A stretch of 64,000 nt of DNA from a bacterium (GTDB lineage: Archaea > Thermoplasmatota > Thermoplasmata > Lutacidiplasmatales > UBA184). A program made the translations under genes and the position numbers. The DNA is taken from assembly GCA_027309555.1 (NCBI GenBank), contig DAIDCO010000003.1:6737-70736 (forward strand), read 5' to 3'. Positions 355 through 63,212 of this stretch are shown here, piece by piece. Under the pieces are notes generated by a model. It ran no database searches. It was not told the DNA's origin and saw only the letters and a program-made list of their open reading frames with translations. Position 1 is the first letter of the stretch, and each line of letters starts with the position of its first letter.

Positions 355-1203
355 GTGGCCGGAGGGCTAGAGATGGAGGGCACGAGCAGCGAACCCGACA
401 CCGGAGACGGCACGGTCGCCCGCGGCGCGATGCTGCACCGCGTAGGGGGACTGAGCTGGGCCGAAGCTGCTGCTCGGATCGGGTACGCGAGCGGTTCCCC
501 CGACCCGGGCGACGCGCTCCGGCAAGCGGTCCTCCGTCGGGAGAAGAAGGCTCGTCGGGCGGGGCCTGTGCAGGCCCCCGACGGGGAGGGTCCGCTCGGC
601 CCCACCATCGCAGTCCGGGGTGACGGTGCGGACGGCAGCGATTCGCGGCCCAACGGCGACGACCCGACGGGCGAGGCCGACGGCTCGGACTCGGGGCCAT
701 CTCGAGAGTCGCCCGCGGTCGGGTCCTCACCAGTGGCTGGACCCATGCTGGAACTTGCCCCATTCCGCGAGACCCTGGCACTTCACGCGGAGGAGCTCGC
801 CGAGGTGAGGCGGGCGCTGGAATCCGTAGGTCCTCTCGCGGACCGGGCGGTGCGCCTCGAAGGCGCCGTCGCGGGCCTGCGCCAAGACGTGCTCGCGGCG
901 ACCGAGCGGATTGACCGAATCGACGGCGCTGTCGAGACCCTTGCGGGCGAACTGGGAACCCTCCGGGACCAGCTCCTCCGCGCGCACGGCGCAATCAGCT
1001 CGCTTGAGATGCGCACCGCGGCGGTCGACGAGGGTTCGAGAAAGGTGCTCGCGGTCGCACAGGACCTCGCGAAGTCGGTAGCGGCGGAGCGTGAGGTGCG
1101 CGCGGCCGCCGTCCGCGACCACTTCGCTTGGCTCGTGGAAATCGAGGCGGACTTAGAGGCCGCCGGTCTCCGGCATGCGGCGACCTATCGGGGGATGCGG
1201 TGA
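355..1203 (+). CDS. hypothetical protein, N-terminal HTH-like segment, acidic linker, C-terminal coiled coil
   Basis: 282-aa ORF. N-terminal LSWAEAAARIGYASGS resembles an HTH. The C-terminal half is a heptad-like Ala/Leu/Glu/Arg coiled coil. Its stop overlaps the GTG start of the downstream recombinase (GTGA). Confidence 0.4.
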   Translation: MAGGLEMEGTSSEPDTGDGTVARGAMLHRVGGLSWAEAAARIGYASGSPDPGDALRQAVLRREKKARRAGPVQAPDGEGPLGPTIAVRGDGADGSDSRPNGDDPTGEADGSDSGPSRESPAVGSSPVAGPMLELAPFRETLALHAEELAEVRRALESVGPLADRAVRLEGAVAGLRQDVLAATERIDRIDGAVETLAGELGTLRDQLLRAHGAISSLEMRTAAVDEGSRKVLAVAQDLAKSVAAEREVRAAAVRDHFAWLVEIEADLEAAGLRHAATYRGMR

Positions 1204-1907
1204 GCGACCCGAACCGCGTCGCTCTCTACCTGCGAGTATCGACACGGGAGCAGTCCATCGACGGTCAAGAGCGGGAACTAAGGGAGGAGGCCGCCCGCCG
1301 CGGTTGGGTGGTCGCCGCAGTCTTCCGAGAGAAGGCCTCCGCGAGCGGCACCGTCCCCCGGACGGAGTACGACCGGCTCATGAGCGAAGCCAAGCCGGCT
1401 GCACGGCAGTGGTCGCACCTAATGGTCTGGAGTCTCGACCGCTTCAGCCGGGAGACCTTTACCAAGGCGGCTCAGTCGGTGCTCGACCTCGAGCGGCTTG
1501 GGATTCGCTTCCACTCCCTGAAAGAACCGGTCGTCGACACCCCTGAGGACGGGGTGCCGGCTTTCGGGCGAGACGCCATGCTCGCGCTTCTCCCCGTGAT
1601 CGCGAGTTTCGAGTCGCGGCGCCGGAGCGAGCGGGTCCGCCTAGCTCTTGCCGAGATTAAGGCGGGGCGACGCAAGGCGCGGGGGAAGCTCGGGCCGGCG
1701 TTCAAGGTCGACCTCCGGTCAATTCGAAGGGCCGAGGCCATGCGAAAACAGGGCAAGACGTGGAACGACGTGGCGCGGAGCCTCGGAATCAAGTGCGAAA
1801 CGATACGGAGTGCCACCTTCAAGGCGAAACACGGTCTCCGTGCGTTCCCGGAGGCCCTCGTTCCCGGAGTTCCCGGTCCCCCCGGAGGAGAGATATCGGT
1901 CCAATGA
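1200..1907 (+). CDS. serine recombinase (resolvase/invertase family)
   Basis: N-terminal VALYLRVSTREQ with catalytic Ser context, internal LDRFSR motif, and a C-terminal HTH-like tail. GTG start at 1200 inside the longer 1128 ORF. About 60% identical by eye to the recombinase at 62511. Confidence 0.8.
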   Translation: MSDPNRVALYLRVSTREQSIDGQERELREEAARRGWVVAAVFREKASASGTVPRTEYDRLMSEAKPAARQWSHLMVWSLDRFSRETFTKAAQSVLDLERLGIRFHSLKEPVVDTPEDGVPAFGRDAMLALLPVIASFESRRRSERVRLALAEIKAGRRKARGKLGPAFKVDLRSIRRAEAMRKQGKTWNDVARSLGIKCETIRSATFKAKHGLRAFPEALVPGVPGPPGGEISVQ

Positions 1908-2293
1908 GGTGGCCGAGGAAGCCTTCGGAACGCCCCGACCCTGAGCAGAGGGAGGCGATGGCGAAGGGTCGCCGCCTGGAATTTGGCGTGCGAACGGAGT
2001 ATTCCACCGACCGCCTCAAGACCGGGCCGGTTGTGCGACGGAAGAACCGTCCTTGGTGCAGCTGCGGTTGGGCGGGAGAGACTTACCTCAACTCGTCGTA
2101 CGGGCCCGAGGTTCTCATGGCCCACCTCAGGGGCGCGCACGCCATCCAACCGGAGGTGCCCAGGATTTGGCGGCGCGTCCTCGAGTTCTATGGGACCTAC
2201 GCCCCGCCTAGTGCTTCGGAATCAGAACCAGCCCAGGTGGGGGGGACTGATCGCCCCGGGGAATCCCACGCCGGAGATCCGTGCGAGCCATGA
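1904..2293 (+). CDS. small Cys-containing hypothetical protein, translationally coupled to the recombinase
   Basis: ATG at 1904 overlaps the recombinase stop (ATGA). Contains a WCSCGW motif. No recognisable family. Confidence 0.3.
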   Translation: MRWPRKPSERPDPEQREAMAKGRRLEFGVRTEYSTDRLKTGPVVRRKNRPWCSCGWAGETYLNSSYGPEVLMAHLRGAHAIQPEVPRIWRRVLEFYGTYAPPSASESEPAQVGGTDRPGESHAGDPCEP

Positions 2294-3035
2294 GGCGTTT
2301 CTCGACGCGAAAGCGACCCGTTAGGAACGCTCCTTCCGGACCCTGGTCCCTTCTCAGGGGCGAGCTTCTATCGCGCTTCGAGGCGCTCGGCGCGGTTCGG
2401 CCCCGGGCCAGAGCGCGCAGAGCGCGCCGTCGGCTCCGTATCTCGCGGTCAGATCCCCGTAAGCAGCGCCGACCAGGGAGAGCCCGAGCGCACGCGCGCA
2501 GCCGCCAGAGAGCGGTAGCTGCTCCGGGTGCCGCTCCACGTGGCGAGCGCCCGTGGCGAACGATCGACCCATGCTGGCTATGCGTCTGGGCTGAGGGTCA
2601 CTCGGTGCCGTCGCTTCGAGGTCACGTTTTCCGGCATCACGGGAGAGCGGTCTGGAACTCCCGCCCCACGAAGAAGGACCGGCTCGCGCTCGCCCTGAAG
2701 CTGCGCGCGCCGAAGCCGAAGAAGGCGGGGCCCCAGCGCTCTGCGCAGCCGCCCGGCCCGTTCCTGCCTACCCCGAACCCCCCTCCGAGGAGCGCCGAGA
2801 CGCCCGCGATGGACCGGCGGCCCGGTGTTACTGGCGGCGGGCGCGGGCCGTCGCGGGGGAGCGCGCCCGTCGCGGCTTGCACGCGGTGCGACTTTGAGGC
2901 ACGTAACATGGCTGAGCTGACGTCACACGTCGCCGAGGCGCACGCGAGACCCGGCGATCGAGAGTCGGCACCCGACAACATCGAGCTAGCTTGAGATCCC
3001 CCCCCGCGTAAAAGGGCGCGGGCGCATGGAAGTAC

Positions 3036-3347
3036 GTGGCTAATCCCTCAGTGACGATTGAACTCAGCCCCGAATCGGCCCTCGTGATCGCGCGCGGCGG
3101 TAAATCCGCCGTCGATGAGCGGGCCCGTAGAAAGCTCGTCGAGGCTGAAGTCGAGCCGGACGAAATCGAGCGCATCCGCGCAGATCCGGTCTATGTGACC
3201 TCGTGCGAGAAGGGGGCCGTCCTCGTAAAACAACGCATGGCGAGTCGGCGTGGCTTGCCACGTAATCTCACGATCGAGTTCTCCGACCCGCGGCGCAAGC
3301 CGCCGACCGACGAGTCCCCGAAGGCGGCCCCCCCGCCCCGAACCTGA
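3036..3347 (+). CDS. hypothetical protein
   Basis: 103-aa ORF with non-repetitive composition (MANPSVTIELSPESALVIARGG...). No family recognised. Confidence 0.3.
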   Translation: MANPSVTIELSPESALVIARGGKSAVDERARRKLVEAEVEPDEIERIRADPVYVTSCEKGAVLVKQRMASRRGLPRNLTIEFSDPRRKPPTDESPKAAPPPRT

Positions 3348-3357
3348 GGGCGGCGCC

Positions 3358-3594
3358 GTGCTGGGGGCCGTTCTCTTCGCCCTCTTGGCAACGAGCCTCG
3401 AAATCGCCCTGGGCCTCCTCGGTGCGCCCACCGCTCTCGTGATCGTTGTCGGTCTCGCGCTCGTCGCCACCGGGGTCCTCTTCGTGTCGTGGCACCCGCT
3501 CGCCGTCGCGGCGTCCTGCGGTCTCTACCTGCTTGCGGTCCTCGCAGGCCTCGTCGCCTTTTCGCTCCTCGGGCTCGCGTTGCAAGCCTTCTAA
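3358..3594 (+). CDS. small membrane protein (2-3 TM helices)
   Basis: GTG start inside the 3250 ORF. About 78 aa, almost entirely hydrophobic helices (LFALLATSLEIALGLLGAPTALVIVVGLALVATGVLFVSW...). Confidence 0.4.
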   Translation: MLGAVLFALLATSLEIALGLLGAPTALVIVVGLALVATGVLFVSWHPLAVAASCGLYLLAVLAGLVAFSLLGLALQAF

Positions 3595-3601
3595 AAAAGG
3601 A

Positions 3602-3621
3602 GGGCGGCCCTCGGGCCGCCC
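3602..3621 (-). terminator. hairpin terminator-like structure between convergent genes
   Basis: GGGCGGCCC..GGGCCGCCC is a perfect 9-nt inverted repeat. On the minus strand it is followed by a run of six T (complement of AAAAAA at 3595-3600), downstream of the minus-strand gene that ends at 3639. Confidence 0.4.
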
Positions 3622-3638
3622 CGGAATGGGTTGCGTCG

Positions 3639-4283
3639 TCAGGCGAGAGTCACCGTCAGCGTCGTGATACTCGTCGGGGCACTGGGCCCGTAGTCGACGT
3701 AGAGGTAGACCGTCGGATTCGTCCCGGCGGCTCCGGCGGCCACGGTCAGAGTTGCGGCGTTCGTCTGGGTCCCGCTCGCCCCCGACCACGTGGTTACGAT
3801 CGAGACCGAGATCGTCGCGGCGGTGAGCGTGGCCGCCGTCGTGAACGTCCACAGCTCACTGAAATCACCCGTCGCGCAGGCCGTGCCGCCCGTCGTGCCA
3901 CTCAGGAAAACGGCGGCGGCGCCATTCGTGAGCGAGCTGCCGGGAACGGCCACGGCGCTGCTCGTGCACGACGCGACATTCGCACTGTTCCACTGCGGGA
4001 CGGCCACGGCGGATAGCGTCGGGGCGGTCGGCAGATCGGTTTCGGTGACGCCGTTACCGGTGTAGGTCACCGGATTCTGTTGGTTCACGACGGTGCCGGA
4101 CCCGCTATAGACCATCGCCGCGGCGAACCCCACGGTAATGCCGACGACCAAGAGCCCCGCGAGGAGGCTGATTGCCGTTCGTCGACTGACCCCGCGTCCG
4201 CGACGGGCTGCCCGGATATACCCCCGGGTTGGGTCGTTTGTCTCAGGTCGTCTCGCCTCGTTCGTTTCGGTAGTTGGTCTCAT
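3639..4283 (-). CDS. secreted/surface Thr-Ser-Ala-rich protein with N-terminal hydrophobic anchor (pilin/class III signal-like)
   Basis: N-terminus RGRGVSRRTAISLLAGLLVVGITVGFAAAMVY, then a low-complexity T/S/A/G/N-rich extracellular region. True start may be the internal GTG near 4190. Confidence 0.45.
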   Translation of the reverse strand: MRPTTETNEARRPETNDPTRGYIRAARRGRGVSRRTAISLLAGLLVVGITVGFAAAMVYSGSGTVVNQQNPVTYTGNGVTETDLPTAPTLSAVAVPQWNSANVASCTSSAVAVPGSSLTNGAAAVFLSGTTGGTACATGDFSELWTFTTAATLTAATISVSIVTTWSGASGTQTNAATLTVAAGAAGTNPTVYLYVDYGPSAPTSITTLTVTLA

Positions 4284-4316
4284 TTTCGCTTCCCCTAGGC
4301 GCGAAAGTGTTGGGTT

Positions 4317-4646
4317 CTAGGGCGAGTTCAAAGCGAACGCTTGCGCACCACCTCCTCTCTCGGCTCGTGTCCCCGGCGAGAGCCGCCCTCGGCTCGGGTC
4401 CTCGCGGAGAATCAGGGCAGCGAGCTGGACGAGCGCGGCCTCGGACGGCGGTCGCGCTCCGCGCGACGCGATGAATCGGTCGACGAAGGCGAAGAGCTCC
4501 TTCGAAGGGACCTCGAGAAGTGCGACCGAGTGCCGCTCGAGCACCGCGACGTAGGTCCGGCCGAACCCGTGACGGATCCTCGCGAAGGCCTCGCGCTCGA
4601 GGTCGGCGAGGATCCCGAGCGCTGCGGCCTTTGGGTCCTCCTTCAT
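4317..4646 (-). CDS. hypothetical small protein
   Basis: 109-aa ORF from ATG at 4646 (MKEDPKAAALGILADLEREAFARIRHGFGRTYVAVLERH...). Its start overlaps the stop of the upstream gene (ATGA). Confidence 0.4.
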   Translation of the reverse strand: MKEDPKAAALGILADLEREAFARIRHGFGRTYVAVLERHSVALLEVPSKELFAFVDRFIASRGARPPSEAALVQLAALILREDPSRGRLSPGTRAERGGGAQAFALNSP

Positions 4647-5488
4647 GAGGCGCCTCCGGGAGTCGAATCCCCGGCCGGCGGGGGGACCGGCCGGGGCCCC
4701 CCGGCCGCTCGCCCTTGCGGACGGTGCCGACGAGTGCCGAGGAGGGTGAGGACCGGGAACTCGAGGAGACCTCCCTCGACCGCCCGGAGGAGATGGAGAG
4801 CGAACGGTCGGTCGAGGAGACGGAATCGGATCGTCTCCTTCCGGACGTACATGTCCAGGAGCGCCGGGGCGCGGCAGTACCTCGAGTCGACAGCGACGTA
4901 TGGTTCCCCCTCCCACAGGACGAGGACGCCCCCCTTCGGGGTCCCGGCCGCCCTGCTCCGGTCGAGACCGTCAACGAGCAGATGGGGCAGGTAATCGGGC
5001 CGGGCCGGGATCCCGGTTCGGGGACCGGCCGCGAGACGACGACGGATTGAGAGCTCGACCGGTAACCGGAACGAGAGGAGAGCGACGGCCAGGACCAGCG
5101 AGGCCCCGACCCCCGCCGGCGGCAGGACCCCACCTCCTGCCAAGGGAACCCACGCGGCGAAAAGATAGAAACCGAGAACGAGGAAAGCCGCCGCGCCGAC
5201 CTCCAGCGCCGACCTCGCGAGCAGCAAGTAGAAACCGGCCAACCGGGGTGCCAACACGGAGGCGGTCCCGGAGACTCCGTCCCATTCCTTGACCAGCGAG
5301 AGAATAACACACCGGTCGCACGAGGCGTTCGGTGCCTTCGGTCGACCACAGAAGGCACACCCGGACGCGCTCATTGAATCTCGAGCAGGGCAGGCGGAGG
5401 AAGGCGAACGAGGGGAGCGGGCCGAGGTCGGCAGCGCGAGCACCCCTCGAACTCGGCGAACGAGTCGAAGGAGCCACAGAGCGGGCAC
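4643..5488 (-). CDS. hypothetical membrane protein with N-terminal Cys4 zinc-ribbon-like motif
   Basis: CAFCGRPKAPNASCDRC motif followed by predicted TM helices (FYLLLARSALEVGAAAFLVLGFYLFAAWVPLAGG). Confidence 0.35.
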   Translation of the reverse strand: MPALWLLRLVRRVRGVLALPTSARSPRSPSSACPARDSMSASGCAFCGRPKAPNASCDRCVILSLVKEWDGVSGTASVLAPRLAGFYLLLARSALEVGAAAFLVLGFYLFAAWVPLAGGGVLPPAGVGASLVLAVALLSFRLPVELSIRRRLAAGPRTGIPARPDYLPHLLVDGLDRSRAAGTPKGGVLVLWEGEPYVAVDSRYCRAPALLDMYVRKETIRFRLLDRPFALHLLRAVEGGLLEFPVLTLLGTRRHRPQGRAAGGPRPVPPPAGDSTPGGAS

Positions 5489-5639
5489 TCCGAGAGAGAA
5501 AGCCGGACCGTTGCCCCGGGGGGCCCGACCCGGGTCACAGCCGCTCCCGGAACGTCAGGGCCCTACCGCCCAGGATGGGGAAGGAATCGAGCAGGAGCAG
5601 CTTCGCAAGGTCGGGTCGGGGCGTCGCCGCTCCGTCCCC

Positions 5640-5790
5640 CCGCACGGGGACACTCATACCTGGCCGCACGCAGTTCCGATATATTTACCCTTTCGTTTAC
5701 CCTCTCCTGTCGGCGGCTGTCCAACTTTCCCCGATGACTAGGCTTGACTTAATTTACCCTCTACCCTATCCTCTTAATCGTGGCGCGTAA
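5640..5790. promoter_or_regulatory. AT-rich divergent promoter region with three TTTACCCT repeats
   Basis: A local GC drop inside a roughly 70% GC genome. ATATATTTACCCTTTCGTTTACCCTCTCC ... TTAATTTACCCTCTACC lies between a minus-strand gene (start 5488) and a plus-strand gene (start 5780). Confidence 0.4.
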
Positions 5791-5989
5791 CTCCCCGCGC
5801 GTGGCGGTTCACGTCTTCAGGTCGAAAGTTTACCGAGTGGCACTCAAGAGCGGGAGCGCTACGTACCGGGTGACGCTCCCCGCACCCCTGGTGGTAGTCA
5901 TGGATCTCTCCGGGGGGGACGAGATCCAGTGGACGTACGACGCGTCGACCCGGCAGATTCAGGTGGGAAAGGCGAAGCGCGGGAAGTAG
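5780..5989 (+). CDS. AbrB/SpoVT-type swapped-hairpin DNA-binding protein
   Basis: 69 aa. YRVTLPAPLVVVMDLSGGDEIQWTYD matches the AbrB N-domain pattern (GRVVIP...GD.lei..D). Confidence 0.45.
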   Translation: MARNSPRVAVHVFRSKVYRVALKSGSATYRVTLPAPLVVVMDLSGGDEIQWTYDASTRQIQVGKAKRGK

Positions 5990-6022
5990 GTCTCGGTACC
6001 GATGCTCATACGCCCGGGGGCG

Positions 6023-6670
6023 TTAAGCATGTCCGTGTTCGAACTCCTCCACCGCCTGACGGAAAGCGCGCATCTTCGCGAGGTCCTTCACTCCCGGCGC
6101 GCTCTCGATTCCCGACGAGACGTCGACCCCCCACGGGTTCACGGTGGCGAGCGCCTCCCCGACGTTCTCCGGCGAGAGACCGCCCGCGAGCACGAACTTG
6201 CGGCCGGGGTGGGCGTCCACGATACGGGCACAGACCTCCCAGTCGGGGCGTACGCCGCTGCCCCCGGGCAACGGCTGGCCGGCGGCATCGAGATGGACCC
6301 GCGGGTAGTCCTCCGCCGGCGGAATGCGGGCCTCGGAGGTCGCCGCGCCGGGCGCCGCGACCGGCACCGACGGCACGAGATGGTGCACCTCGAGGAACTC
6401 GAGGCCCGCCGGGACCTCTCCGTAGACCTGGACCCGGTCGACCCCCACCTCATCGAAGAGGCGGTGGATGAGCTCCGCGGACGGCGAGACCACGACCGCC
6501 CACGCCTCGGCCTCGCTCGGCACCTCCGCGATCAGCCCCGCCGCTTTCTCGAGGGTAAGGTTCCGGGGCGAAGCCGGGACGTCGATCACGAACCCGGCGG
6601 CCCCTCCCGCCGGAACCTCGGCGAGGTGGGCCGGATCGGTGAGCCCGCAGAACTTCACGAACGTCGTCAT
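6023..6670 (-). CDS. trpF: phosphoribosylanthranilate isomerase
   Basis: FVKFCGLT N-terminal motif, about 215 aa, and it is the last gene of the trp cluster. Confidence 0.85.
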   Translation of the reverse strand: MTTFVKFCGLTDPAHLAEVPAGGAAGFVIDVPASPRNLTLEKAAGLIAEVPSEAEAWAVVVSPSAELIHRLFDEVGVDRVQVYGEVPAGLEFLEVHHLVPSVPVAAPGAATSEARIPPAEDYPRVHLDAAGQPLPGGSGVRPDWEVCARIVDAHPGRKFVLAGGLSPENVGEALATVNPWGVDVSSGIESAPGVKDLAKMRAFRQAVEEFEHGHA

Positions 6671-7476
6671 GCGGGGCCCTCTTCCCGGGAACGGCGCGCA
6701 AGGGAGGCCAGGAACTGCACGGGCGCTCGCGCCCGGGCGAGCCCGCTACCCACGAGGATCCCGTCGACCCCCGCCTGCCAGAACGCGTCGGCCTCGCGAG
6801 GACCCTCTACGCCGCTGAGCCCGAGGAGCGGGTGGAGGCCCAGGGAACGTGCGGCGGCGATCGTCCGCGCGGCGGTCGATCGGTCGAGGGCCAGGGTGTC
6901 CAGGTCTCGGACGTTCACACCGTACATGTCGGCCGCCACCTGCCCGACCACACTTAATTCTGCCCTATCGTGGAACTCGAGCAGTACCTCGAGGCCCGCG
7001 ACGTGCGCGAGCTCGGCGAGCTCTGGGAGAGGCCTCGGGATCCGCCCCTCCGTACCGAGCCGGGCGATCAGCAGGATCGCGCTCGCGCCGGCGCGGCGCG
7101 CGGCCTCGACCTGGACCGGGTCGACCAGGAAATCCTTGAACAGTACGGGCGCGGACGTCGCCGCCGCGAGCGCTGCGACGTCCCGAGGGCTGCCCTCGAA
7201 GCGGGGGCGTGCCGCGAGGCAGGAGTACCCGGTGACGTCGGCCGATCGCGTCACATCGACGAACTCCCGGATGCTGCGCGCCGGGAGGCGGGGGTCGGCT
7301 TGGCCGGGAGAGACTCGCTTGTATTCGACCAAAAGCCCGCCGCGCGAGCGGTCCCGGTCGAGCGCCTTACGGAGGCTCGGGCGCGCCGTTAGCCGCTCCG
7401 AAGGGAGGCCGGAAAGGTACTCGGGCGACCGGACGGCCGCGACCGTCTCCCGGACGATCTCAACGAGAAAGCCCAT
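6667..7476 (-). CDS. trpC: indole-3-glycerol phosphate synthase
   Basis: 269 aa, MGFLVEIV...LLVEYKRVSP...VLFKDF...NVRDL motifs. Only this part of the 721-aa track ORF (6667..8832) is called; the rest is out-of-frame overlap with trpD/trpG. Confidence 0.85.
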   Translation of the reverse strand: MGFLVEIVRETVAAVRSPEYLSGLPSERLTARPSLRKALDRDRSRGGLLVEYKRVSPGQADPRLPARSIREFVDVTRSADVTGYSCLAARPRFEGSPRDVAALAAATSAPVLFKDFLVDPVQVEAARRAGASAILLIARLGTEGRIPRPLPELAELAHVAGLEVLLEFHDRAELSVVGQVAADMYGVNVRDLDTLALDRSTAARTIAAARSLGLHPLLGLSGVEGPREADAFWQAGVDGILVGSGLARARAPVQFLASLARRSREEGPA

Positions 7477-7478
7477 GC

Positions 7479-8516: not shown

Positions 8517-9094
8517 CTCCGCACCTCCTCGAGGAAGTTCCGCAACAGGGCGGGTCCGTGACGCGTGAGGTAGGACTCCGGGTGGAACTGGACCGATTCC
8601 ACGGGGCGGGTGCGGTGGCGCAGGGCCATGACGGTCCCCTCCGGGCCCCGGGCCGAAACCTCGAGCCCGCGCGGGACGGTCGAGGGCCGGACGACGAGCG
8701 AATGATATCGGGCGGCCGACATCGGGGAGGGTATCCCCTCGAAGATCCCCCGCCCGTCATGGAGGACCTCCGAGAGCTCGCCGTGGACCGGCTCCGGCGC
8801 GCGACCGACCATTGCCCCGTAGTGCTCCCCAATGAGCTGGTGGCCCAGGCAGACGCCGAGGAACGGCCGTTCGGTGTCCCAGCGGGCGAGGAGAGCGCGG
8901 GAGAGTCCCGTCACTCGTCGATCGCGCGGATGCCCCGGGCCCGGCGAAAGGACGACCGCGTCCGGGTCCGCCGCGATCGCCCGGCGCAGCGGCTCGGTGG
9001 CCCGTAGGCAGCGGACCGTCGCGCCGTGCGCCGCGAGCGCCTGCTCGATATTGTGCACGAACGAGTCCTCGTGGTCGATGAGAAGGATCTTCAC
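8513..9094 (-). CDS. trpG: anthranilate synthase component II (glutamine amidotransferase)
   Basis: GTG start overlapping the trpE stop (GTGA). VKILLIDHEDSF...GVCLGHQ (catalytic Cys)...HPES. Confidence 0.85.
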   Translation of the reverse strand: MKILLIDHEDSFVHNIEQALAAHGATVRCLRATEPLRRAIAADPDAVVLSPGPGHPRDRRVTGLSRALLARWDTERPFLGVCLGHQLIGEHYGAMVGRAPEPVHGELSEVLHDGRGIFEGIPSPMSAARYHSLVVRPSTVPRGLEVSARGPEGTVMALRHRTRPVESVQFHPESYLTRHGPALLRNFLEEVRR

Positions 9095-43748: not shown

Positions 43749-43757
43749 AATCTATAA

Positions 43758-53863: not shown

Positions 53864-53890
53864 GGGCGCCCGGAGGGTCGGTGTTCGGAG

Positions 53891-56103: not shown

Positions 56104-56107
56104 GAAG

Positions 56108-57205
56108 ATGGCGCTGTTCGCTTCCGACCCCGTCGAACGCGAGGCCGTCCGCCTCGGCCGGGTCCACGAGGTGCCCGCGGAGATCCACTACTCGAGCGGT
56201 TCCGACCGCTGGTGGTATCACGGCCCGCTCTGGGTGCAGGAGACCCGACCGGTCCACGAGTGGGAGTTCAGCCCCGCGCTCCGGGACCCCCGAAACCGGC
56301 TCGTTCTCCGACTCATCAAGAAGGGCTGGACCGACGAGCGGATCGCCGCCGAGCTGGTCTCCGAGGTCCGGCTGACGGAACCGCTGACTCCCGAAGAGGA
56401 GCGCGCCGCGCTGCGTAGCGCGACCGTCGTGGTACGGGAGGTCCGCCGGGCTTCGGGACGCGCCCACGAGCCCCACGTCCTGCGAATCTACGGCCTCAAG
56501 AACGCCTCGAAGACCGACGAGCGGATCCTGGTGACCATCGACCAGGACCTGGTCCACGAGGCGCCGATGGTCCCGTTCACTCGGACCGAGAAGGGAAGCC
56601 GACGCCTCCAGTTCGCCATGATGGCGGCGATGGCGATCATCGACGCGATCTTCCTCTACGCGATGGTCTCCTTCGTCAACGCCGGACCGTCGTTTGCCGT
56701 CAACGCGGGACAGATCCAGCAGCTTTCCCTCTCCTTCGGCCAGCTGATCGCCCTTCCCTCGGTCATCCTCGTGACCTACGTCCTGATGGCACGGAGAACG
56801 CTCGTTCTCGACCTCGAGATCCAACCCGTCGTCGAGGACCTCGAGGACACCCACAGCGAGGCCGTCTACCTCGTCAACTCGGAGAAGACCCCGGCGTCGA
56901 CGTATCTGTCGCGGACGTTCCGGCTCGATCCGGCCGCCGTCCGGAGCCTGACCGAGGAAATTGCGCGGTTCCAGTCCGACACGATCGCGAACCTGCAGGA
57001 ACAGTCCCGCTCGCTGCGGACCGAGCTCGACTCGGCGAAGGTGCTCGGCGGCGAGGCGTGGAGCCAGTCGACGGACCTCAAGGCGCTCGACCAGCGCCAC
57101 CTCCCGTCGATCCACCACGATCCTCTCGGGACGTGGGTCCTCGTCGGGATCGTCGCCACGGTGGTCGGCGTGGTCGTCTGGGCGGCCATGGCCGCGGGGG
57201 TGTGA
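56108..57205 (+). CDS. membrane protein, unknown function
   Basis: 365 aa. Soluble N-domain, central TM helices, C-terminal TM. Confidence 0.45.
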   Translation: MALFASDPVEREAVRLGRVHEVPAEIHYSSGSDRWWYHGPLWVQETRPVHEWEFSPALRDPRNRLVLRLIKKGWTDERIAAELVSEVRLTEPLTPEEERAALRSATVVVREVRRASGRAHEPHVLRIYGLKNASKTDERILVTIDQDLVHEAPMVPFTRTEKGSRRLQFAMMAAMAIIDAIFLYAMVSFVNAGPSFAVNAGQIQQLSLSFGQLIALPSVILVTYVLMARRTLVLDLEIQPVVEDLEDTHSEAVYLVNSEKTPASTYLSRTFRLDPAAVRSLTEEIARFQSDTIANLQEQSRSLRTELDSAKVLGGEAWSQSTDLKALDQRHLPSIHHDPLGTWVLVGIVATVVGVVVWAAMAAGV

Positions 57206-57208
57206 CCG

Positions 57209-57916
57209 ATGCCTCGGGAAACCTTCGTCGGGGTCGTCCTCGTGGCGGTCCTGACCGTTCTCTCGCTCGGCTCCCCGCTCCTGGGGACGGCTCGCGCGGC
57301 CGGCTCCTCCGCCTCCGCGGTCGAGTACTATCGGCTCGACCCCGGCACGCCCACCGAGGAGTCCTCCACCTACGCTCTTCCGATCTTCGTCGTCGCCGAG
57401 CCGGTCGGTTCCGTGGCGAACCGGTCCGTGACTCAGCAGGCGTGGCAGGGTCTCCAGGTCGTCGAGGTGGGCACTCCCACCGTCCCGTTCCTCAACTGGT
57501 CGGTGCCCGACTGGTCGACGGGAGCGTTCGAGCTGGCCCTCTCGCTGACAGCCGAGGAGGTCCATGCCATCGTGGGAGGGCAGGCGATCCTCGCCCTCAA
57601 CTCCTCGATCCGGGTCGGTTCTACGGTCGTCGGCGCCGCCGGGATCATCGACGGCGCGGTCCTCGACTCGGCCACCGTCGTCGGCTCCTGGTGGAGCGCG
57701 GTCTTCGGCATGTCGACACCGCCTCCCGACCCCACGTTGTCCTCGCTCCCCGGCATCCTCGACGACCTCGCTTGGTTCGGAGCCTCCACCGCGGGCCGTG
57801 CGACGTATGCCGCCACGACCATCGTCGCCGTCCTGCTCTACCTCTGGGAGGGCCACAAGCTCGCCCGGGCCAAGCTGTCGGGCGACCCGTCCCGGTCCCG
57901 TCGGGAGGCAATCTGA
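57209..57916 (+). CDS. secreted/membrane protein, unknown function
   Basis: 235 aa. N-terminal signal/TM and C-terminal TM. Confidence 0.45.
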   Translation: MPRETFVGVVLVAVLTVLSLGSPLLGTARAAGSSASAVEYYRLDPGTPTEESSTYALPIFVVAEPVGSVANRSVTQQAWQGLQVVEVGTPTVPFLNWSVPDWSTGAFELALSLTAEEVHAIVGGQAILALNSSIRVGSTVVGAAGIIDGAVLDSATVVGSWWSAVFGMSTPPPDPTLSSLPGILDDLAWFGASTAGRATYAATTIVAVLLYLWEGHKLARAKLSGDPSRSRREAI

Positions 57917-58206
57917 TGGCGCTCGGAGCGGACCTCCTGCTCGCCGTCGCCTTCCTCGCCGCCGTCGGGCTCCTCTTCACGATCGCGACCGCGCTGAAGA
58001 ACTGGGTCTTCGAGCTCAGCCCCCGCGAGTGGGGCTACTCGGCGATCCTGACGTTCAGCCTCGGCGTCCTCGCCGCCGCCTACCTCGACGGCGACGGGAC
58101 CCTCGAGCTTCTCGCGATGGTGCCGATCTTCCTCGCGGTCGTCTGGTGGGTCGCAAGGCTCTGGCGGCGCCACCAGGGCCGGGCGGCCCGCGGGACGGAG
58201 ACGTAG
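57916..58206 (+). CDS. small membrane protein
   Basis: ATG overlaps the upstream stop (TGATG). 3 TM helices. Confidence 0.4.
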   Translation: MALGADLLLAVAFLAAVGLLFTIATALKNWVFELSPREWGYSAILTFSLGVLAAAYLDGDGTLELLAMVPIFLAVVWWVARLWRRHQGRAARGTET

Positions 58207-58207
58207 C

Positions 58208-58969
58208 ATGGCGTCCATCGCTCCCAGCCGGGACCGGCCGCCGACCGTCCTCGACACCGGGGAACGCTGGCGCCTTGCGTTCTGGGAGAAGCACAGCCAT
58301 GCGATCCAGTCGGACCTTCTCGAGATCACCGGCTGGTTGGGCCGCTCCCCGGACCGGGAGGTGCTGACCGAGGCCGGTGGCAAGGTCCGGTTCGTCCGGG
58401 CCGGGACGGCTCCGGCCAGCGTGCTCTTCCGGGTCCCTCGGGAAGGCACCCGTGCCTACCAGAACTGGGAGTGGTGCCTCGGCTACCTCCGGATGGAGCA
58501 GAGCCGCCGATGGCTCGTCCGGCAGCAGGTCGAGGAGGCGGAACGGGCTCTCCAGGACGCGGAGGAGGAGCTGAAGGCACTCCGCGGCCGCCATCGGAAA
58601 CTCGATTCCCGTCTCCGGTCGCTGGCGGAGCGCGCGCGTGCCGGCGCCCGCTCGGGTTCCGGGCAGCAGCCGAACGGGCCGCTGGCGCAACTCCAGGCCG
58701 GTATGGCCGAGGCCCGGGAGAATCTCGCGGTCTACCGGGTCGCCGAGCGGCATCGGGACACGATCCGGCTCCGACTCGAAGGGTATCGGGACCACCTCGT
58801 CCCGCGAGTCTACCCGGGGCTCTGGGCCCGGGTCAACGCGTTCCTCGACATGCAGGCGCTCTCGGTGGCCAACGTGGCGAGCGAGGAGTTCCGCCGCCAC
58901 CCGCAGCTCGCCGCCCGGTGGGCCGACCGCAGGGAACAGGCTCTCGCGGAGGATGAGAGTCTTGACTGA
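58208..58969 (+). CDS. hypothetical soluble protein with central coiled coil
   Basis: 253 aa. QQVEEAERALQDAEEELKALRGRHRKLDSRLRSLAERA. Confidence 0.45.
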   Translation: MASIAPSRDRPPTVLDTGERWRLAFWEKHSHAIQSDLLEITGWLGRSPDREVLTEAGGKVRFVRAGTAPASVLFRVPREGTRAYQNWEWCLGYLRMEQSRRWLVRQQVEEAERALQDAEEELKALRGRHRKLDSRLRSLAERARAGARSGSGQQPNGPLAQLQAGMAEARENLAVYRVAERHRDTIRLRLEGYRDHLVPRVYPGLWARVNAFLDMQALSVANVASEEFRRHPQLAARWADRREQALAEDESLD

Positions 58970-59387
58970 CCCCGTCACCTCTCCGCCTTCCGCGGAGGAG
59001 TTCAAGCGGATCCCATCCGGAAAACGCCTCTACGGACTGCTCCTCTCCGCCACCGACGAGATCACCCTCAACCACGCAACGCCCGGGGTCTCGTTCTCCT
59101 ATCCGATCCTCGGCGAGCTCGCGAGCGACCTCCTGGTCCTCGCGGAGACCGAGCTCGAGAAGGGTTCCAGCGACTCGTCGACCCAGCTCCTCGCCGAGTG
59201 GAAGTCGCTTGACGAGCATCTCGGCTCGGCAGAGGCGCGAAACTGGGAGGTCGACGCTCCGGAGGCCCGGATCCGCCTGACCTGTCTCAAGCGCTACCTG
59301 CTCCGCTCCGGCCTCATGGCGCAGCGCGAGGCGGAGGCGGACGCGCCGGACCGGTATCTCGTCCGTGAGGAGGTTCCCGGAGCATGA
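58953..59387 (+). CDS. hypothetical protein
   Basis: 144 aa. Start overlaps the upstream gene end. Acidic helical protein. Confidence 0.4.
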   Translation: MRVLTDPVTSPPSAEEFKRIPSGKRLYGLLLSATDEITLNHATPGVSFSYPILGELASDLLVLAETELEKGSSDSSTQLLAEWKSLDEHLGSAEARNWEVDAPEARIRLTCLKRYLLRSGLMAQREAEADAPDRYLVREEVPGA

Positions 59388-60496
59388 GCGATTGGGTCCC
59401 GCCCCTCGCCCACATGATCCTCGACGACCGGGTCGACCGTGGAGTGTCTCCGACGAGGGCGCTGGAGCGAGCCGAACACTACCGGCGCTGGCTCGAGACA
59501 CTACCCTCCGCGCACGACCGGCTGACCTGTCCGGAGGAGGCGAAGATCCGCCTCTGGCCCGGGAGCCTCTGCTTCCACAAGGGACAGGCGACCGTGGTGG
59601 TGGGAAGCCAGGGGAAGGGAAAGACGAACCTCCTCGCCTTCCTCATCGAGCGGGCGATCCGGCACCGGCCGGAGTGGGAGATCTACAGCAACATCCCGTT
59701 CCCCTGGGACGAGGAACTGGCGGGCATCGTTCCTCCTCCGCCGCGTCTCCACTCGATCTCGACGATGTCGGAGCTGCTCCGGGGCATCGCGCAGACCGTC
59801 CTCGCGGGCCGGGAGCCGGCGGTCGTCATTGACGAGATGGACCAGGTGGCGACGAGCCACGAGTGGATGACGGAGCGGAGCGAGTCGTGGACGAAGTTCC
59901 TGTTCGTGGAGCGGCACCTGAGGGTCTGGGGGCCGATCCTCGCCTACCATGTCCGGGAGCACGTGCCGCTGCCGCTCCGGGCGAACGCCGCCCTGCGCGG
60001 AAGCTACCTGAGGGTCATCGTTCGGCACGGGAAGCACCAGTTCGTCCGGGCAGAGGACCCGACGTATTTCGGAGGCATCTGGGAGAGCGTGCTGCCGTTC
60101 CTGACGCTCGGGCTGCGGGGGTTCGAGATCGACGTCGACATGCGGGAACTGCAGACGGTGGCGCGGGGAAGCCACCGGAGGGTCGCGGAACTCACCCTGC
60201 AGTACCTCGACGACCTCGACGGGCGCCGGAAGGAGGAAGAAACCACCCGTCGCGACGTGCCCCGGAAGTCGGACCTGCCTTCCCCCGAGGTCGCTCATGC
60301 CCTGGTCGAAGCGGAGGTCATCCGTCGTCTCGAGAGCGGGGCTACTCACCGGCAGATCGTCGAAGCGACCGGCCTCTCGAAGTACATGGTCGCGGGCGTC
60401 TCCGTCCGATGGAGGGCGTCGCGCCTGCGGCAGCAGGGGCCGGCTCCCGATTCCCCCGGGGGCGCCCGGTGCCCGGTGCCCGGGAGCCCCCCTTGA
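59384..60496 (+). CDS. P-loop NTPase with C-terminal HTH-like domain
   Basis: Walker A VVVGSQGKGKTNLL, Walker B AVVIDEMDQ, C-terminal THRQIVEATGLSKYMVAG. Confidence 0.6.
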   Translation: MSDWVPPLAHMILDDRVDRGVSPTRALERAEHYRRWLETLPSAHDRLTCPEEAKIRLWPGSLCFHKGQATVVVGSQGKGKTNLLAFLIERAIRHRPEWEIYSNIPFPWDEELAGIVPPPPRLHSISTMSELLRGIAQTVLAGREPAVVIDEMDQVATSHEWMTERSESWTKFLFVERHLRVWGPILAYHVREHVPLPLRANAALRGSYLRVIVRHGKHQFVRAEDPTYFGGIWESVLPFLTLGLRGFEIDVDMRELQTVARGSHRRVAELTLQYLDDLDGRRKEEETTRRDVPRKSDLPSPEVAHALVEAEVIRRLESGATHRQIVEATGLSKYMVAGVSVRWRASRLRQQGPAPDSPGGARCPVPGSPP

Positions 60497-60577
60497 CGCT
60501 CTCTCTAGGACGCGCGCGCGCGAGGGGAGGAATCGTTCCGGTTCTTCCGGGAAGGAGTCCGGTCCGGGGAGGCCGTC

Positions 60578-61261
60578 ATGTCGATTGACTGGGGCGGAGT
60601 GGCGGGGAGCTTCCTTACCGCCTTCGTTCTGGTCGTCCCCTTCGTCGTCACCCTGCGGCCCCGTGCGCTGAGTCTGGCCGGAGGAGCGACCTTCGTCGCC
60701 CTCGCCGCCCTCCTGGTGGAGGTCCTGGTCCAGAACGCCCTCCAGCCACTCTACGCTGCCGCGGTCGTCCTCGTCTTCGTGGCGCCGCTGACCGAGGAGT
60801 TGCTCAAGTTCCTCGACTCGGGTCTCACCGGGGCGAACTACGCCTCCGCTGCCGGGGCGGGGATCGGCTTCGCCGCCACCGAGAACGCCCTCTACTTCCT
60901 CGTCGCGTGGGGGGAGCCCCTCTCCTACCTCGTGGCCCTGATCGCCATCCGAACGGTCACGGACCCGCTGCTCCACGTAACGGCGACGACGCTCACCACC
61001 CTCTCCTGGCACGGCCGGCCCTGGGGCCTACCGGCCGGCATCGCCCTCCATGCCCTCTGGAACACGGTGGCACTGATCGAGGTCTACATCGACCCGACCG
61101 TCGGCCTCCTCCTGCTGGGCGCGGCCGGGTTCGCGGTTCTCGGGATCCTCCTCCTGCTGCGGCGCAACCCGGAAGTCCGGGAAACGCTGACCGACCGCTG
61201 GAGGATGAACCCGTGGTCGGGGTCGCTGCTCCCGGCGGGAGCGGCCGGAGAAGCAACATGA
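60578..61261 (+). CDS. CPBP-family (CAAX/Abi-like) intramembrane protease-like protein
   Basis: 6 or more TM helices, EELLKF (EExxx[RK]-like) and HALWN (HxxxN) motifs. Confidence 0.4.
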   Translation: MSIDWGGVAGSFLTAFVLVVPFVVTLRPRALSLAGGATFVALAALLVEVLVQNALQPLYAAAVVLVFVAPLTEELLKFLDSGLTGANYASAAGAGIGFAATENALYFLVAWGEPLSYLVALIAIRTVTDPLLHVTATTLTTLSWHGRPWGLPAGIALHALWNTVALIEVYIDPTVGLLLLGAAGFAVLGILLLLRRNPEVRETLTDRWRMNPWSGSLLPAGAAGEAT

Positions 61262-61632
61262 CCGAGGAGAGGTGGTCGGGCCACGTGGGGCACCTCGAGG
61301 AGGGCGGGCTGCACGGCTGGTGCGCGAGTTGCCCTCCCGAGGAACGACACCGGGCGATCGAGCGGACGGTCCGGGCCGATGGCTACGCGACCGCGACGCG
61401 CCGGCTGAACTTCCTCGCGAACGTGGCGAACCGACACGACAACGAGCACCTGCACCGCGTCGCCCGGGAAGACCGCGAGTGGACCGAGGACCGGGAGAAG
61501 GAGGAGCGCGAGAACGAGGACCGGCGTCGGGAGCCGGGGGAGTTCCACCGCGTCGAGGGATACCGCAAGGCGGTCGGCGACCGGGTTCGACCCCACGTCG
61601 CCCGGAACCCGCGACGGAGGAGGCAACCTTGA
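61258..61632 (+). CDS. small protein, paralog A, with Arg-rich C-terminal motif
   Basis: ATGA overlap with the upstream gene. WCASCPPEERH near the N-terminus. C-terminus GEFHRVEGYRKAVGDRVRPHVARNPRRRRQP. Confidence 0.45.
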   Translation: MTEERWSGHVGHLEEGGLHGWCASCPPEERHRAIERTVRADGYATATRRLNFLANVANRHDNEHLHRVAREDREWTEDREKEERENEDRRREPGEFHRVEGYRKAVGDRVRPHVARNPRRRRQP

Positions 61633-61982
61633 CCGAGGAGGAATACGTGGTCACGGCCCGGACTCCCAGTATGAGTGCCCCGGGCTTCTACGTCTTCCAC
61701 TCGAAGAAGGTGGCCGAGCACTGGGCGGCGTCCATTCGGAGAGGAGGGGGCGAGGCCAGAGTCCGCCCGAAGTCGCCGGAGTATTCGGTCGAGGCCGGGA
61801 ACCGCCCGGACTACGACGCGGTCCGGACGGAGGGGTCGAGAGCGAAGGAAGAGGACGAAGTTCCCGAGGAGGAGGACCGACCCAAGAGGAGCGGCGAGTT
61901 CCATCGGGTCGATGGCTACCGCAAGGAAGACGGAGCCCAAGTCCGGGCGCACCTCGCGAGGAACCCGCGGAGGCGGAGGTGA
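61629..61982 (+). CDS. small protein, paralog B, with the same Arg-rich C-terminal motif
   Basis: TTG start overlapping the upstream stop (TTGA). C-terminus GEFHRVDGYRKEDGAQVRAHLARNPRRRR. Confidence 0.4.
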   Translation: MTEEEYVVTARTPSMSAPGFYVFHSKKVAEHWAASIRRGGGEARVRPKSPEYSVEAGNRPDYDAVRTEGSRAKEEDEVPEEEDRPKRSGEFHRVDGYRKEDGAQVRAHLARNPRRRR

Positions 61983-62248
61983 AGCGCGGTGCCACTCCGG
62001 TCTGGGCCTTCGTGGTCGGAGCGCTATTCGTTCTGGCCGGCTTGTGGGCCCTCCTCAACGGGATCGCGTGCGCGGCCCTCCTGAACTCGGTTGGGCCATC
62101 GATACCCTCCGGTCCCTCTCAGTTCTGCGGGACCTACGAGTGGGGCGGAGCGCTGCTGCTAATGCTCGGCATCGCCCTGCCGATCGGCGTGGCACTGGCA
62201 TCCCGTCACGGACGCGGGGCTTCGGGACGGGCGATCCGGAGCCGATGA
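61979..62248 (+). CDS. small membrane protein
   Basis: GTGA overlap. Two TM helices with a Cys pair. Confidence 0.4.
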   Translation: MKRGATPVWAFVVGALFVLAGLWALLNGIACAALLNSVGPSIPSGPSQFCGTYEWGGALLLMLGIALPIGVALASRHGRGASGRAIRSR

Positions 62249-62514
62249 CCGAGCGTCGAGCGTCGAGCGCCGACCGACTCACAGGGTTCTGGGACCCGTG
62301 TGGACCTATTGCGAGCGGCCTGCGGCCTGCCGAGTCGGACTTCGAGGCGGCCATCCTGGGCGCCCTCACCGATAGTGTCCCCCCCCGAGAGGCGCTGGCG
62401 TGGGTTGCCCGGTGGCAGACCCGGCGGGGAGGGCATGAGCGGCGGGGTTCGGCTCGAAGGCGATCGGGCACTCATCCGAAGGCACAGCGGCCGTTGAAGG
62501 AGGGCAGACGATGA
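62245..62514 (+). CDS. small hypothetical protein
   Basis: ATGA overlaps at both ends. 89 aa. Confidence 0.35.
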   Translation: MTERRASSADRLTGFWDPCGPIASGLRPAESDFEAAILGALTDSVPPREALAWVARWQTRRGGHERRGSARRRSGTHPKAQRPLKEGRR

Positions 62515-63212
62515 CCGGTGGGACCACGGCGCTCTACGTGCGAGTGAGTTCCGAGGAGCAAGACCTAGTCGGACAGGAACGAGAGTTGCGCGGTTACGCC
62601 GAGGCCAGGAACTGGACGGTCGTCGGCAGCTACGCCGAGAAGGTCACGGGGACCGGGAAGGTCGAGCGGAAGGCGTACGAACGTCTCCTGCGGGACGCGG
62701 GGGAACGGAAGTTCGATCACCTGGTGGTCTGGGCGCTGGACCGGTTCAGTCGAGAGGAGACGTTCACGAAGGCCACGCAAGCGATCCTCGACCTGGAGGG
62801 GCTCGGTATCCGGTTTCACTCGCTCAAGGAACCGATGTTGGACACCCCCGAGGACGGCCGGCCGAACCTCGGAAGAGACGTGCTGCTTGCACTGCTTCCG
62901 GTCATTGCGAGCTTCGAGTCGAAGCGTCGGTCGGAACGGGTCCGTGTGGCGATGCGGGAGATCAAGGAGGGACGACGGCGGACGCGTAGCGGGCGTCCGC
63001 CGGGTCGGCCCGTCCGGGCGACGCCCGAGAAGGTGTCGGCGATCGTTCGCCTGAAGGCCCAAGGGCTGACGTGGAGGGTCATCGCCCAACGAGTCGGGCT
63101 GCCGAGGGGGACCTGTGCCAACGTCGCTTCCCGGGTGCGCCGGGGGCTATTAGAAAACTCTCTCGATACGAAAGGGTCGGATCGGCCTTCGACGGACCCG
63201 GTCCCTACGTAA
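62511..63212 (+). CDS. serine recombinase (resolvase/invertase family)
   Basis: ALYVRVSSEEQ, LDRFSRE motif. Paralog of the recombinase at 1200..1907. Confidence 0.8.
   Translation: MTGGTTALYVRVSSEEQDLVGQERELRGYAEARNWTVVGSYAEKVTGTGKVERKAYERLLRDAGERKFDHLVVWALDRFSREETFTKATQAILDLEGLGIRFHSLKEPMLDTPEDGRPNLGRDVLLALLPVIASFESKRRSERVRVAMREIKEGRRRTRSGRPPGRPVRATPEKVSAIVRLKAQGLTWRVIAQRVGLPRGTCANVASRVRRGLLENSLDTKGSDRPSTDPVPT

Follow-up and report, generated by a model that had tools for sequence, protein, structure and literature searches.

Two paralogous serine recombinase genes 61 kb apart in a Thermoplasmata contig probably belong to two independent integrated elements

Near the two ends of a 64,000-nt stretch of archaeal DNA (Thermoplasmatota; Thermoplasmata; Lutacidiplasmatales; UBA184; contig DAIDCO010000003.1 of assembly GCA_027309555.1, positions 6,737 to 70,736 of the forward strand; hereafter, the window) lie two genes for small serine recombinases, rec1 (1200-1907, 235 amino acids (aa)) and rec2 (62511-63212, 233 aa). 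Both are on the plus strand and together they bracket about 61 kb, which raises the question of what the bracket represents. An earlier note on this DNA considered a single mobile unit unlikely, proposed that the genes are the resolvases or integrases of two related elements or else IS607-like units lacking TnpB, and pointed out that recombination between them could delete or invert the segment. The analysis described here indicates that the window probably contains two independent integrated elements, one at each end, with ~34.7 kb of host chromosome between them, each combining a tyrosine integrase with an accessory serine resolvase.

The left element was found to be inserted precisely at the trpF/trpB overlap of the tryptophan operon, with an 11-bp duplicated core, at a site that is empty in relatives. 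Only its right-hand 6 kb (1-6037) falls within the window; the whole element measures ~12.6 kb and extends 6.6 kb beyond the window start. Contig DAIDCL010000040.1 (L005) matches window positions 1-11533 at 99.9% and reaches 6770 bp further left. On the right, the element is flanked by the host gene trpF (6023-6670, minus strand; PF00697), the last of the trp genes in the order trpE-G-D-C-F. The first 180 bases of a sister contig (L006, positions 2-181, minus strand) code for the N-terminal part of tryptophan synthase beta (PDB 1x1q, E = 2e-18); the left element is therefore located between trpB and trpF. The right copy of the 11-bp core, GCATGTCCGTG (6027-6037), abuts the trpF stop codon, and the left copy (L005:167-177) includes the trpB ATG. 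Relatives whose TrpF proteins are 82-83% identical carry an uninterrupted operon, trpE-G-D-C-F-B-A, in which trpF and trpB overlap by 8 nt. Aligning two such empty sites with both junctions placed the insertion exactly at the overlap of the trpF stop and the trpB start, with the core CACGGACATGC duplicated, and showed that the C-terminal end of trpF (HGHA-stop) is regenerated from element DNA. The attP predicted from the junctions reads ...GGGGGCGTTAA-GCATGTCCGTG-CTTACTCC..., and the predicted attB reads ...GAACACGGACATGCCTAGACGG.... No empty site was seen in the same population, where the element is present in all seven contexts of the identical TrpF. The insertion separates trpB from the rest of the operon, and presumably also trpA, whose presence is assumed from the relatives; the element may supply a promoter for the trpB gene that it has cut off.

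Within the left element, rec1 is an internal gene, with 7.8 kb of element DNA to its left and 4.1 kb to its right. Upstream of it, L005 encodes open reading frames (ORFs) of 462, 264, 735, 79, 64, 151, 136, and 276 aa. Directly after rec1 comes an ORF for a Cys/His-rich protein of 111 aa without a family match (1958-2293, plus strand), the first of a series of small Cys/His-rich and membrane proteins that is followed by the trp operon on the minus strand. A pilin-like gene was also read from the sequence downstream of rec1. At the other end of the element, an AT-rich stretch, ACATACATATAT (L006:181-245), lies ~35 bp from the ATG codons of trpB and of the tyrosine recombinase gene, which are on opposite strands.

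The right element extends from ~40777 to ~63224 (~22.4 kb, with ends known to within ~8 bp), at the 3′ end of a surface-protein gene. Its left end was defined by homology with two other loci (L140 and L141), which encode an 86%-identical homolog of a 444-aa protein followed by the same RecT gene. The homology begins at ~40777 with CGGGCCCG(CC/AG)GGGGCCT.ATA..ATAATCTATTAGAACCC, and the three upstream flanks are unrelated. Its right end was defined by two further loci, L053 (OY970259.1) and L054 (CAVOMG010000003.1), which share 84-93% DNA identity with the window over 52267 to 63224-63231. In all three pairwise comparisons the homology ends 12-19 bp past the rec2 stop codon, and the downstream flanks are unrelated, consisting of PKD surface proteins in the window, TetR and dehydrogenase genes in L054, and, by ORF reading, ATPase and nuclease genes resembling defence genes in L053. 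The insertion lies at the extreme 3′ end of an NHL-repeat surface-protein gene, the last ten codons and stop codon of which are element DNA. Surface-protein genes that form one similarity cluster are found on both sides (Kelch and NHL on the left, two PKD on the right), and this paralogy fits a simple insertion into a host locus. A second copy of the terminal sequence was not found in the window, and neither the left-junction sequence nor a tRNA-Val repeat was found in the 10 kb downstream.

The two elements have a serine recombinase (53% identity) and a tyrosine recombinase (34% identity) in common, and nothing else. They follow a common plan, in which the tyrosine recombinase gene lies ~57 bp inside the left junction and is followed by variable cargo, with the serine recombinase as the last gene of its operon. 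In the right element the tyrosine recombinase is the 444-aa protein (40835-42169, plus strand), with its ATG 58 bp from the left junction; its 462-aa counterpart in the left element is encoded just beyond the left edge of the window, with its ATG 57 bp from the junction. An AT-rich, TATA-like stretch precedes the ATG in both. Neither protein matched a Pfam model even at E = 1, nor did either reach an NCBIfam model. They can be assigned as tyrosine recombinases because their homologs are annotated as integrase or XerD (several, at 37-50% identity, with a precomputed PF00589 hit), because R152, Y268, R271, H298, and Y306 (Arg, Tyr-x-x-Arg, His, Tyr) are invariant in a 25-sequence alignment, and because the family profile aligns these catalytic motifs to the archaeal XerA structures 4a8e (E = 3e-9) and 5hxy (E = 7e-6).

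The setting of the same family elsewhere points to a role in integration. Fifty Thermoplasmata loci with a serine recombinase gene of this kind were collected from Genome Taxonomy Database (GTDB) species representatives, and flanks of 10 kb each way were examined, many of the contigs being short. At the first cut-off, 14 of the 50 loci have a member of this tyrosine recombinase family within 10 kb of the serine recombinase; a profile search raised the number to 17. Its gene abuts a tRNA gene in nine loci, and in L067, L068, and L075, repeats of 16-20 bp of the tRNA 3′ end, 12-17 kb away, enclose both recombinase genes. A different, classical tyrosine integrase immediately follows the serine recombinase in L076, L079, and L080, the first of which is a 4.9-kb element bounded by 21-bp repeats of the end of a tRNA-Arg gene. 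Integrases that target tRNA genes are an established class, and from this knowledge and from its position, the tyrosine recombinase is probably the integrase of these elements. Neither this protein family, which was checked against IMG/VR only, nor the left-end sequence was found in that database.

The DNA between the two elements (6038-40776, ~34.7 kb) is host chromosome by its Pfam contexts. It contains the trp operon, surface protein genes with Kelch and NHL repeats, and genes for aspartate kinase, semialdehyde dehydrogenase, the shikimate pathway, isocitrate lyase, and malate synthase. The earlier observation that core biosynthetic operons lie within the bracket is thus borne out, the operons being those for trp, the shikimate pathway, aspartate kinase, and the glyoxylate shunt. 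The doubt that the 61 kb forms one mobile unit was likewise well placed, as each element has its own ends and the site of the left one is empty in relatives. The 61-kb geometry is a coincidence of two elements 35 kb apart, and the paralogy of rec1 and rec2 merely reflects a family that is common, and often present in several copies, in Thermoplasmata mobile elements. Deletion or inversion of the segment between the two genes is possible in principle but unsupported here. No assembly with a 61-kb deletion was found, although rare events are invisible in assemblies; such a deletion would take out the trp and aro genes, and the candidate sites and helix-turn-helix (HTH) regions of rec1 and rec2 differ.

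The two recombinase genes themselves are intact. The encoded proteins share 112 of 213 aligned residues (53%; BLASTP, E = 1e-69), including the long identical stretches on which their paralogy had been proposed, and rec2 has one residue more than rec1 within ‘...SREETFTKA’. Their scores against the resolvase N-terminal domain (PF00239; 88.5 bits for rec1 and 95.3 bits for rec2) far exceed the gathering score of 23.3. The catalytic serine and the conserved Arg and Asp residues are invariant across an 18-sequence family alignment that includes both proteins (Y9, R11, S13, D77, R78, and R81 in rec2 numbering); the corresponding catalytic set in γδ resolvase is R8, S10, D67, R68, and R71. The catalytic domain begins at residue 7, the catalytic serine is residue 13, and the HTH is C-terminal: residues 177-212 of rec2 match HTH_23 with 22.3 bits, slightly under the cut-off of 24.6, and rec1 aligns with rec2 across this region. 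Size and domain order are those of the small serine recombinases (~180-240 aa). Among structural relatives over the full length, sequence comparison ranks the Gin invertase first (4m6f; residues 41-193 aligned), and the top PDB match of the N-terminal 80 residues is TP901-1 integrase. NCBIfam hits to CcrB (the best), IS607, Mpi, XisF, and YneB were all far under their cut-offs, and no named NCBIfam family takes either protein. Neither protein has the recombinase or zinc-ribbon C-terminal domains of the large serine integrases.

Each gene appears to be translationally coupled to a different upstream partner, as had been noted, the 4-nt overlaps being confirmed in both cases. The GTG start of rec1 overlaps the TGA stop of an ORF of 276-282 aa without a family match (355-1203, plus strand) in the sequence GTGA (1200-1203), and the ATG of rec2 overlaps the TGA of an 89-aa partner (62245-62514, plus strand) in the sequence ATGA (62511-62514); GAAGGAGGG is situated 7-15 nt upstream of the rec2 start. 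DNA similarity between the two genes is just ~70% across ~340 bp, too low for collapsed or misjoined assembly repeats, and that reservation of the earlier note is thereby removed. Exact copies of both proteins occur, on separate contigs, in metagenome-assembled genomes (MAGs) of a Thermoplasmata archaeon (GCA_027309605.1 and others).

The serine recombinases belong to a family that is widespread in this class of archaea. A total of 395 homologs were collected, and identity to rec2 is 62% or higher for the top 120; almost all of the named ones come from Thermoplasmata MAGs, where relatives of rec2 at 96-97% identity are also present, and several of the genomes behind the 50 loci carry two to four copies. 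No close relatives were found in IMG/VR, PLSDB, or INPHARED: known plasmids, phages, and IMG/VR contigs hold only relatives of ≤40% identity, and ‘recombinase family’ proteins of bacterial plasmids show 28-33% full-length similarity. The neighbours of the gene differ almost wholly between loci, although a primase-polymerase/helicase-like replication protein, assigned by motif reading, is encoded directly upstream in nine loci and a DNA methyltransferase in eight. In one locus (L086:9983-11782), the serine recombinase ORF extends to 599 aa by fusion or read-through into an unrelated C-terminal domain. The same gene lies 244 bp from a tRNA-Gln gene, of which a 15-bp repeat is found 8.7 kb off, and a tyrosine recombinase was undetected between them.

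A short sequence recurs behind these genes. In ~20 loci the family motif, AAGGnnCCCnTTT, is at most a few bases away from the stop codon of the serine recombinase, and in a position-weight-matrix scan of 1.6 Mb, 13 of the 53 matches of at least 14 bits fell ≤70 nt from the stop. Its best match in the window, TAAAGTGCCCGTTTCGGA (63210-63227, plus strand; 18.2 bits), overlaps the rec2 stop at the right junction, and the second best, AAAGCGACCCGTTAGGAA (2310-2327, plus strand; 16.9 bits), lies downstream of rec1. Over the 80 kb in and around the window these are the only strong copies, and each element has one, located downstream of its recombinase gene. The possibility that the motif is a generic terminator was rejected, since it is absent at host gene ends in those 80 kb and was unflagged by a terminator scan. 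Inverted-repeat half-sites common to the loci were also sought upstream of the recombinase, and none was found beyond coding-sequence conservation. Around the rec2 end, the 15-nt sequence CGGACCCGGTCCCTA is imperfectly repeated 31 nt further on, in the host flank, as CGGACCCCGTTCGTA (63193-63238). CCCGTT(T)CG boxes at the right junction are spaced one helical turn apart, and similar boxes open the unrelated flanks in L053 (7170-7225) and L054 (10680-10740).

A second set of repeats lies upstream of the rec1 operon, where four exact GGCGTACGNAC boxes occupy intergenic DNA (82-92, plus; 196-206, minus; 268-278, plus; 291-301, minus). They form two inverted pairs. The second pair (268-301) makes up an inverted repeat of 34 bp, its arms 11 bp long, which matches in geometry a dimer site of a serine recombinase. 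With up to one mismatch allowed, the box occurs 15 times in the window (7.15 expected); five of these matches are exact, and four of the five are clustered at 82-301. Judged from the sequence, these boxes are a possible operator, origin, or res-like site for rec1.

How the two recombinases of each element might divide the work can be proposed from these observations. The tyrosine recombinase would catalyse integration and excision, and the serine recombinase would act as an accessory site-specific recombinase of an episomal form, most probably resolving multimers at one site per element. A role in multimer resolution fits best because there is one site per replicon, the protein is the size of a resolvase, and its neighbours are plasmid-like, and it agrees with the annotation given to the pfam00239 protein of pT26-2-type integrative plasmids; on this analysis the chances that the serine recombinase is a multimer resolvase are roughly even.

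Several observations weigh against the proposal of two integrated elements with a tyrosine integrase and an accessory resolvase. The junctions of the right element share just a weak core (GGGCCCG and GTGCCCG, 7 of 8; 40777-40783 and 63214-63220), and the longer flanking direct repeats there are only chance-level matches of 9-14 nt. No empty site was found for it, the lookup of the Kelch gene having given only same-strain contigs and an IS630-type polymorphism. Because neither an empty site nor a longer repeat was found, the crossover point is uncertain by ~8 bp. A tyrosine recombinase is present within 10 kb in just ~20 of 52 loci (the 50 genome loci and both window elements). No canonical res site with several subsites was recognised near rec1 or rec2, and the dyad symmetry of the motif amounts to a 13-bp palindrome only, compared with the two to three subsites of 25-34 bp that make up a res site. 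The motif also falls exactly on the junction of the right element, where it would equally suit an att function for the serine enzyme. As for an episomal form, none of the fetched loci lay on a circular contig, neither element's predicted attP was matched in JGI metagenomes, and IMG/VR yielded no excised-circle junctions. The activity of either recombinase is itself a prediction.

The alternative that survives best, although it is unlikely, is that the serine recombinase is the integrase/excisionase of these elements, or a second integrase, acting right behind its own gene, with the tyrosine recombinase serving another role or target. The right element gives this idea much of its appeal. There, rec2 is the terminal gene, its stop is overlapped by the motif exactly at the junction, and related elements in three different contexts each terminate 12-19 bp past that stop; the host flanks open with similar CCCGTT(T)CG-like boxes, as if a target half-site were recognised, and the near absence of identity between the element ends is tolerated by serine recombinases. 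In addition, L073, L086, and L096 have a tRNA gene 250-700 bp upstream of their serine recombinase, and no tyrosine recombinase was detected in these loci. The left element argues the other way, with its perfect 11-bp core, a tyrosine recombinase 57 bp from the junction, and rec1 4 kb from the nearest end. In L067, L068, L075, and L076 as well, the serine recombinase is internal, and the bounding tRNA repeats abut a tyrosine recombinase, and in five loci (L097-L099, L089, and L102) conserved element genes are still present downstream of the motif. The large C-terminal domains of known serine integrases are absent, and a 13-bp palindrome is too short for a standard crossover site, as judged from the dimer sites in γδ resolvase and Hin complexes.

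A doubtful alternative is that the site behind the serine recombinase is a hot spot at which co-resident elements exchange variable arms, so that 63224 would mark a border between modules, with the real end of the right element lying further downstream. Arm exchange of a comparable kind results from res-mediated recombination among transposons of the Tn3/Tn21 family. In every pair of loci with extended upstream DNA homology (the trio of the window, L053, and L054, together with L059/L061, L071/L072, and L061/L062), that homology ends no more than ~50 bp from the serine recombinase stop, and the DNA downstream in L053 resembles defence cargo rather than core host genes by ORF reading. However, some of these breaks may merely reflect a recombinase that is better conserved than its neighbours, and both the paralogous host surface genes on the two flanks, which fit simple insertion, and the failure to find a left-junction or tRNA-Val repeat downstream, speak for an element end at 63224. 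What this alternative shares with the preceding one, action of the serine recombinase at the short site behind its own gene, whether integrating at non-tRNA targets or swapping variable arms, is a long shot in its own right. If true, it would explain both the homology that ends within tens of bases of the stop and the site at the right junction (63210-63227). We know of no precedent in Archaea for integration by a resolvase-sized serine recombinase.

It is improbable that rec1 and rec2 act as Hin/Gin-type DNA invertases on DNA close to them, for instance to switch surface or pilin-like genes. The suggestion is prompted by their relatedness to Gin, by source records that label some relatives ‘DNA invertase Pin-like’, and by the genes downstream, pilin-like for rec1 and PKD surface-protein genes for rec2. 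No inverted site pair was found to flank any nearby segment, the only inverted pairs near rec1 and rec2 being low-identity, G+C-rich matches within coding DNA; each element has a single strong motif, the neighbours of the family are wholly variable, and the orientation is identical in all assemblies. The other identity considered in the earlier note, IS607-like minimal transposons without TnpB or the ends of a composite unit, retains next to no likelihood and was refuted by domain order, context, and score, because the weak similarity of the catalytic domain gives only 17.8 (rec1) and 34 (rec2) bits against a cut-off of 110 (NCBIfam NF033518), there is no N-terminal MerR-type HTH (the serine is residue 13 and the HTH is C-terminal), no TnpB-type domain occurs in the Pfam contexts of either neighbourhood, each gene is the last in a long operon within an element of 12-22 kb with core host DNA between the two, and the empty site seen in a relative concerns just one of the elements.

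The proposal of two independent integrated elements thus keeps one part of the earlier suggestion, that the genes belong to two separate elements, and modifies the other: the relationship between the elements is a loose one, and the likelier integrase is the tyrosine rather than the serine recombinase. Both elements are previously undescribed and of a known general kind, the plasmid- or virus-like integrative elements of Archaea. Their layout recalls that of the pT26-2 family, archaeal elements of 17-38 kb in which a tyrosine integrase adjoins att and a pfam00239 ‘putative resolvase’ lies near the opposite end of the map, and which also have a variable region, an ATPase, and a block of mostly unannotated, transmembrane-rich proteins (Soler et al. 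2010, PMC2926602; Badel et al. 2019, PMC6972569). Each window element has a tyrosine integrase and a pfam00239 protein, and the right element follows the same arrangement in general terms; the likeness is confined to layout. The pT26-2 family is defined by seven core genes (t26-5p, 6p, 7p, 11p, 13p, 14p, and 15p) and is limited to Thermococcales and Methanococcales (PMC6972569), whereas the window elements reside in another host class, are inserted at the ends of protein genes rather than in tRNA genes, and, in the case of the right element, encode an ATPase that gave no tblastn match in collections of plasmids (PLSDB) or phages (INPHARED). Unlike in SSV-type elements, the integrase is not split on integration. 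In SCCmec-like elements a serine recombinase follows a replication gene (PMC6972569), and several of the loci studied here show the same succession.

At the level of the proteins, rec1 and rec2 resemble the γδ/Tn3 resolvases, Sin, ParA-type resolvases, and Hin/Gin in their PF00239 Ser/Arg residues, their length (~200-235 aa), and their C-terminal HTH. They differ from this group in having the family motif downstream of the gene and in forming a distinct, tightly conserved archaeal clade in which all scores are under the NCBIfam cut-offs. With IS607, φC31, TP901-1, and CcrAB they share the catalytic domain, but they lack the MerR HTH and TnpB of the first and the recombinase and zinc-ribbon domains of the large serine integrases, which exceed 400 aa compared with 233-235 aa here. 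The tyrosine recombinases keep the Arg...(Tyr/His)-x-x-Arg...His...Tyr pattern of XerA and of tRNA-targeting integrases, and in relatives they adjoin att sites or tRNA genes. They are longer than XerA (~280-320 aa), with a conserved C-terminal extension, and the insertion sites here, at the trpF/trpB overlap and the 3′ terminus of a surface gene, set them apart from the integrases that target tRNA genes.

The remaining contents of the right element fall into two parts. An accessory segment with a G+C content of 0.60-0.62 (42386-50944; 68-73% for the window) encodes RecT/Bet (42386-43309, minus strand), TcmP (44459-45565), a DUF5131 protein (45545-46273, minus strand), a MmeI-like methyltransferase (46397-49294), and an NYN/OST-HTH protein (50099-50944, minus strand); the low-G+C stretch from 43000 to 51000 looks like cargo that was acquired separately. 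It is followed by 14 co-directional, tightly packed ORFs ending at rec2 (51173-62514, plus strand), which are mostly without a family match. Among them are a P-loop ATPase (59384-60496, plus strand), a PrsW-like membrane protease (60578-61261, plus strand), and an 896-aa protein with weak tape-measure-like matches in PHROGs, where no other virus hallmark genes were found. Two tandem paralogs in this block, of 124 aa (61258-61632) and 117 aa (61629-61982), share the C-terminal motif GEFHRV(E/D)GYRK...ARNPRRRR.

In the host interval, a tRNA-Ile(GAT) gene (32952-33027, minus strand) is of a kind used as an integration target by the tyrosine recombinase family in two other genomes (L068 and L081). 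Four ORFs without a family match follow it (32952-34821), and this region may be the decayed remnant of an element. A partial repeat of the tRNA-Ile was not found, and the tRNA-Val situated 10 kb beyond the window likewise has none. Contigs of two assemblies are broken at one shared position, ~37670, in intergenic DNA upstream of the NHL gene at 37799; the idea that this point marks an element end was rejected, as the breaks are explained by an insertion sequence (IS) polymorphism, IS630-type DDE_3 transposase genes replacing the NHL gene there in contig 76 of GCA_027310855.1 (L146:2-1032). At 11533-11745, within or beside the aspartate kinase gene, 211 bp of the window correspond to just 10 bp in DAIDCL010000040.1, close to the end of that contig, a difference that is either strain variation or a contig-end artefact. 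To the right of the window, at a distance of 7-10 kb (L001:17380-20615), an IS21-type pair consisting of an IstB-like ATPase and a Mu-type transposase adjoins a tRNA-Val gene.

These findings remove a false lead, that of a large mobile or invertible unit of 61 kb. The left element provides a clean case of insertion inside an amino-acid biosynthesis operon, in which the stop codon of the upstream gene is rebuilt, and this trp-operon insertion, together with the poorly modelled tyrosine recombinase family, is a minor point of interest. More broadly, the uncultured Thermoplasmata of soil and peat harbour many integrated plasmid- or virus-like elements, which are built on a tyrosine recombinase family missed by current Pfam and NCBIfam models and on a very well-conserved small serine recombinase.

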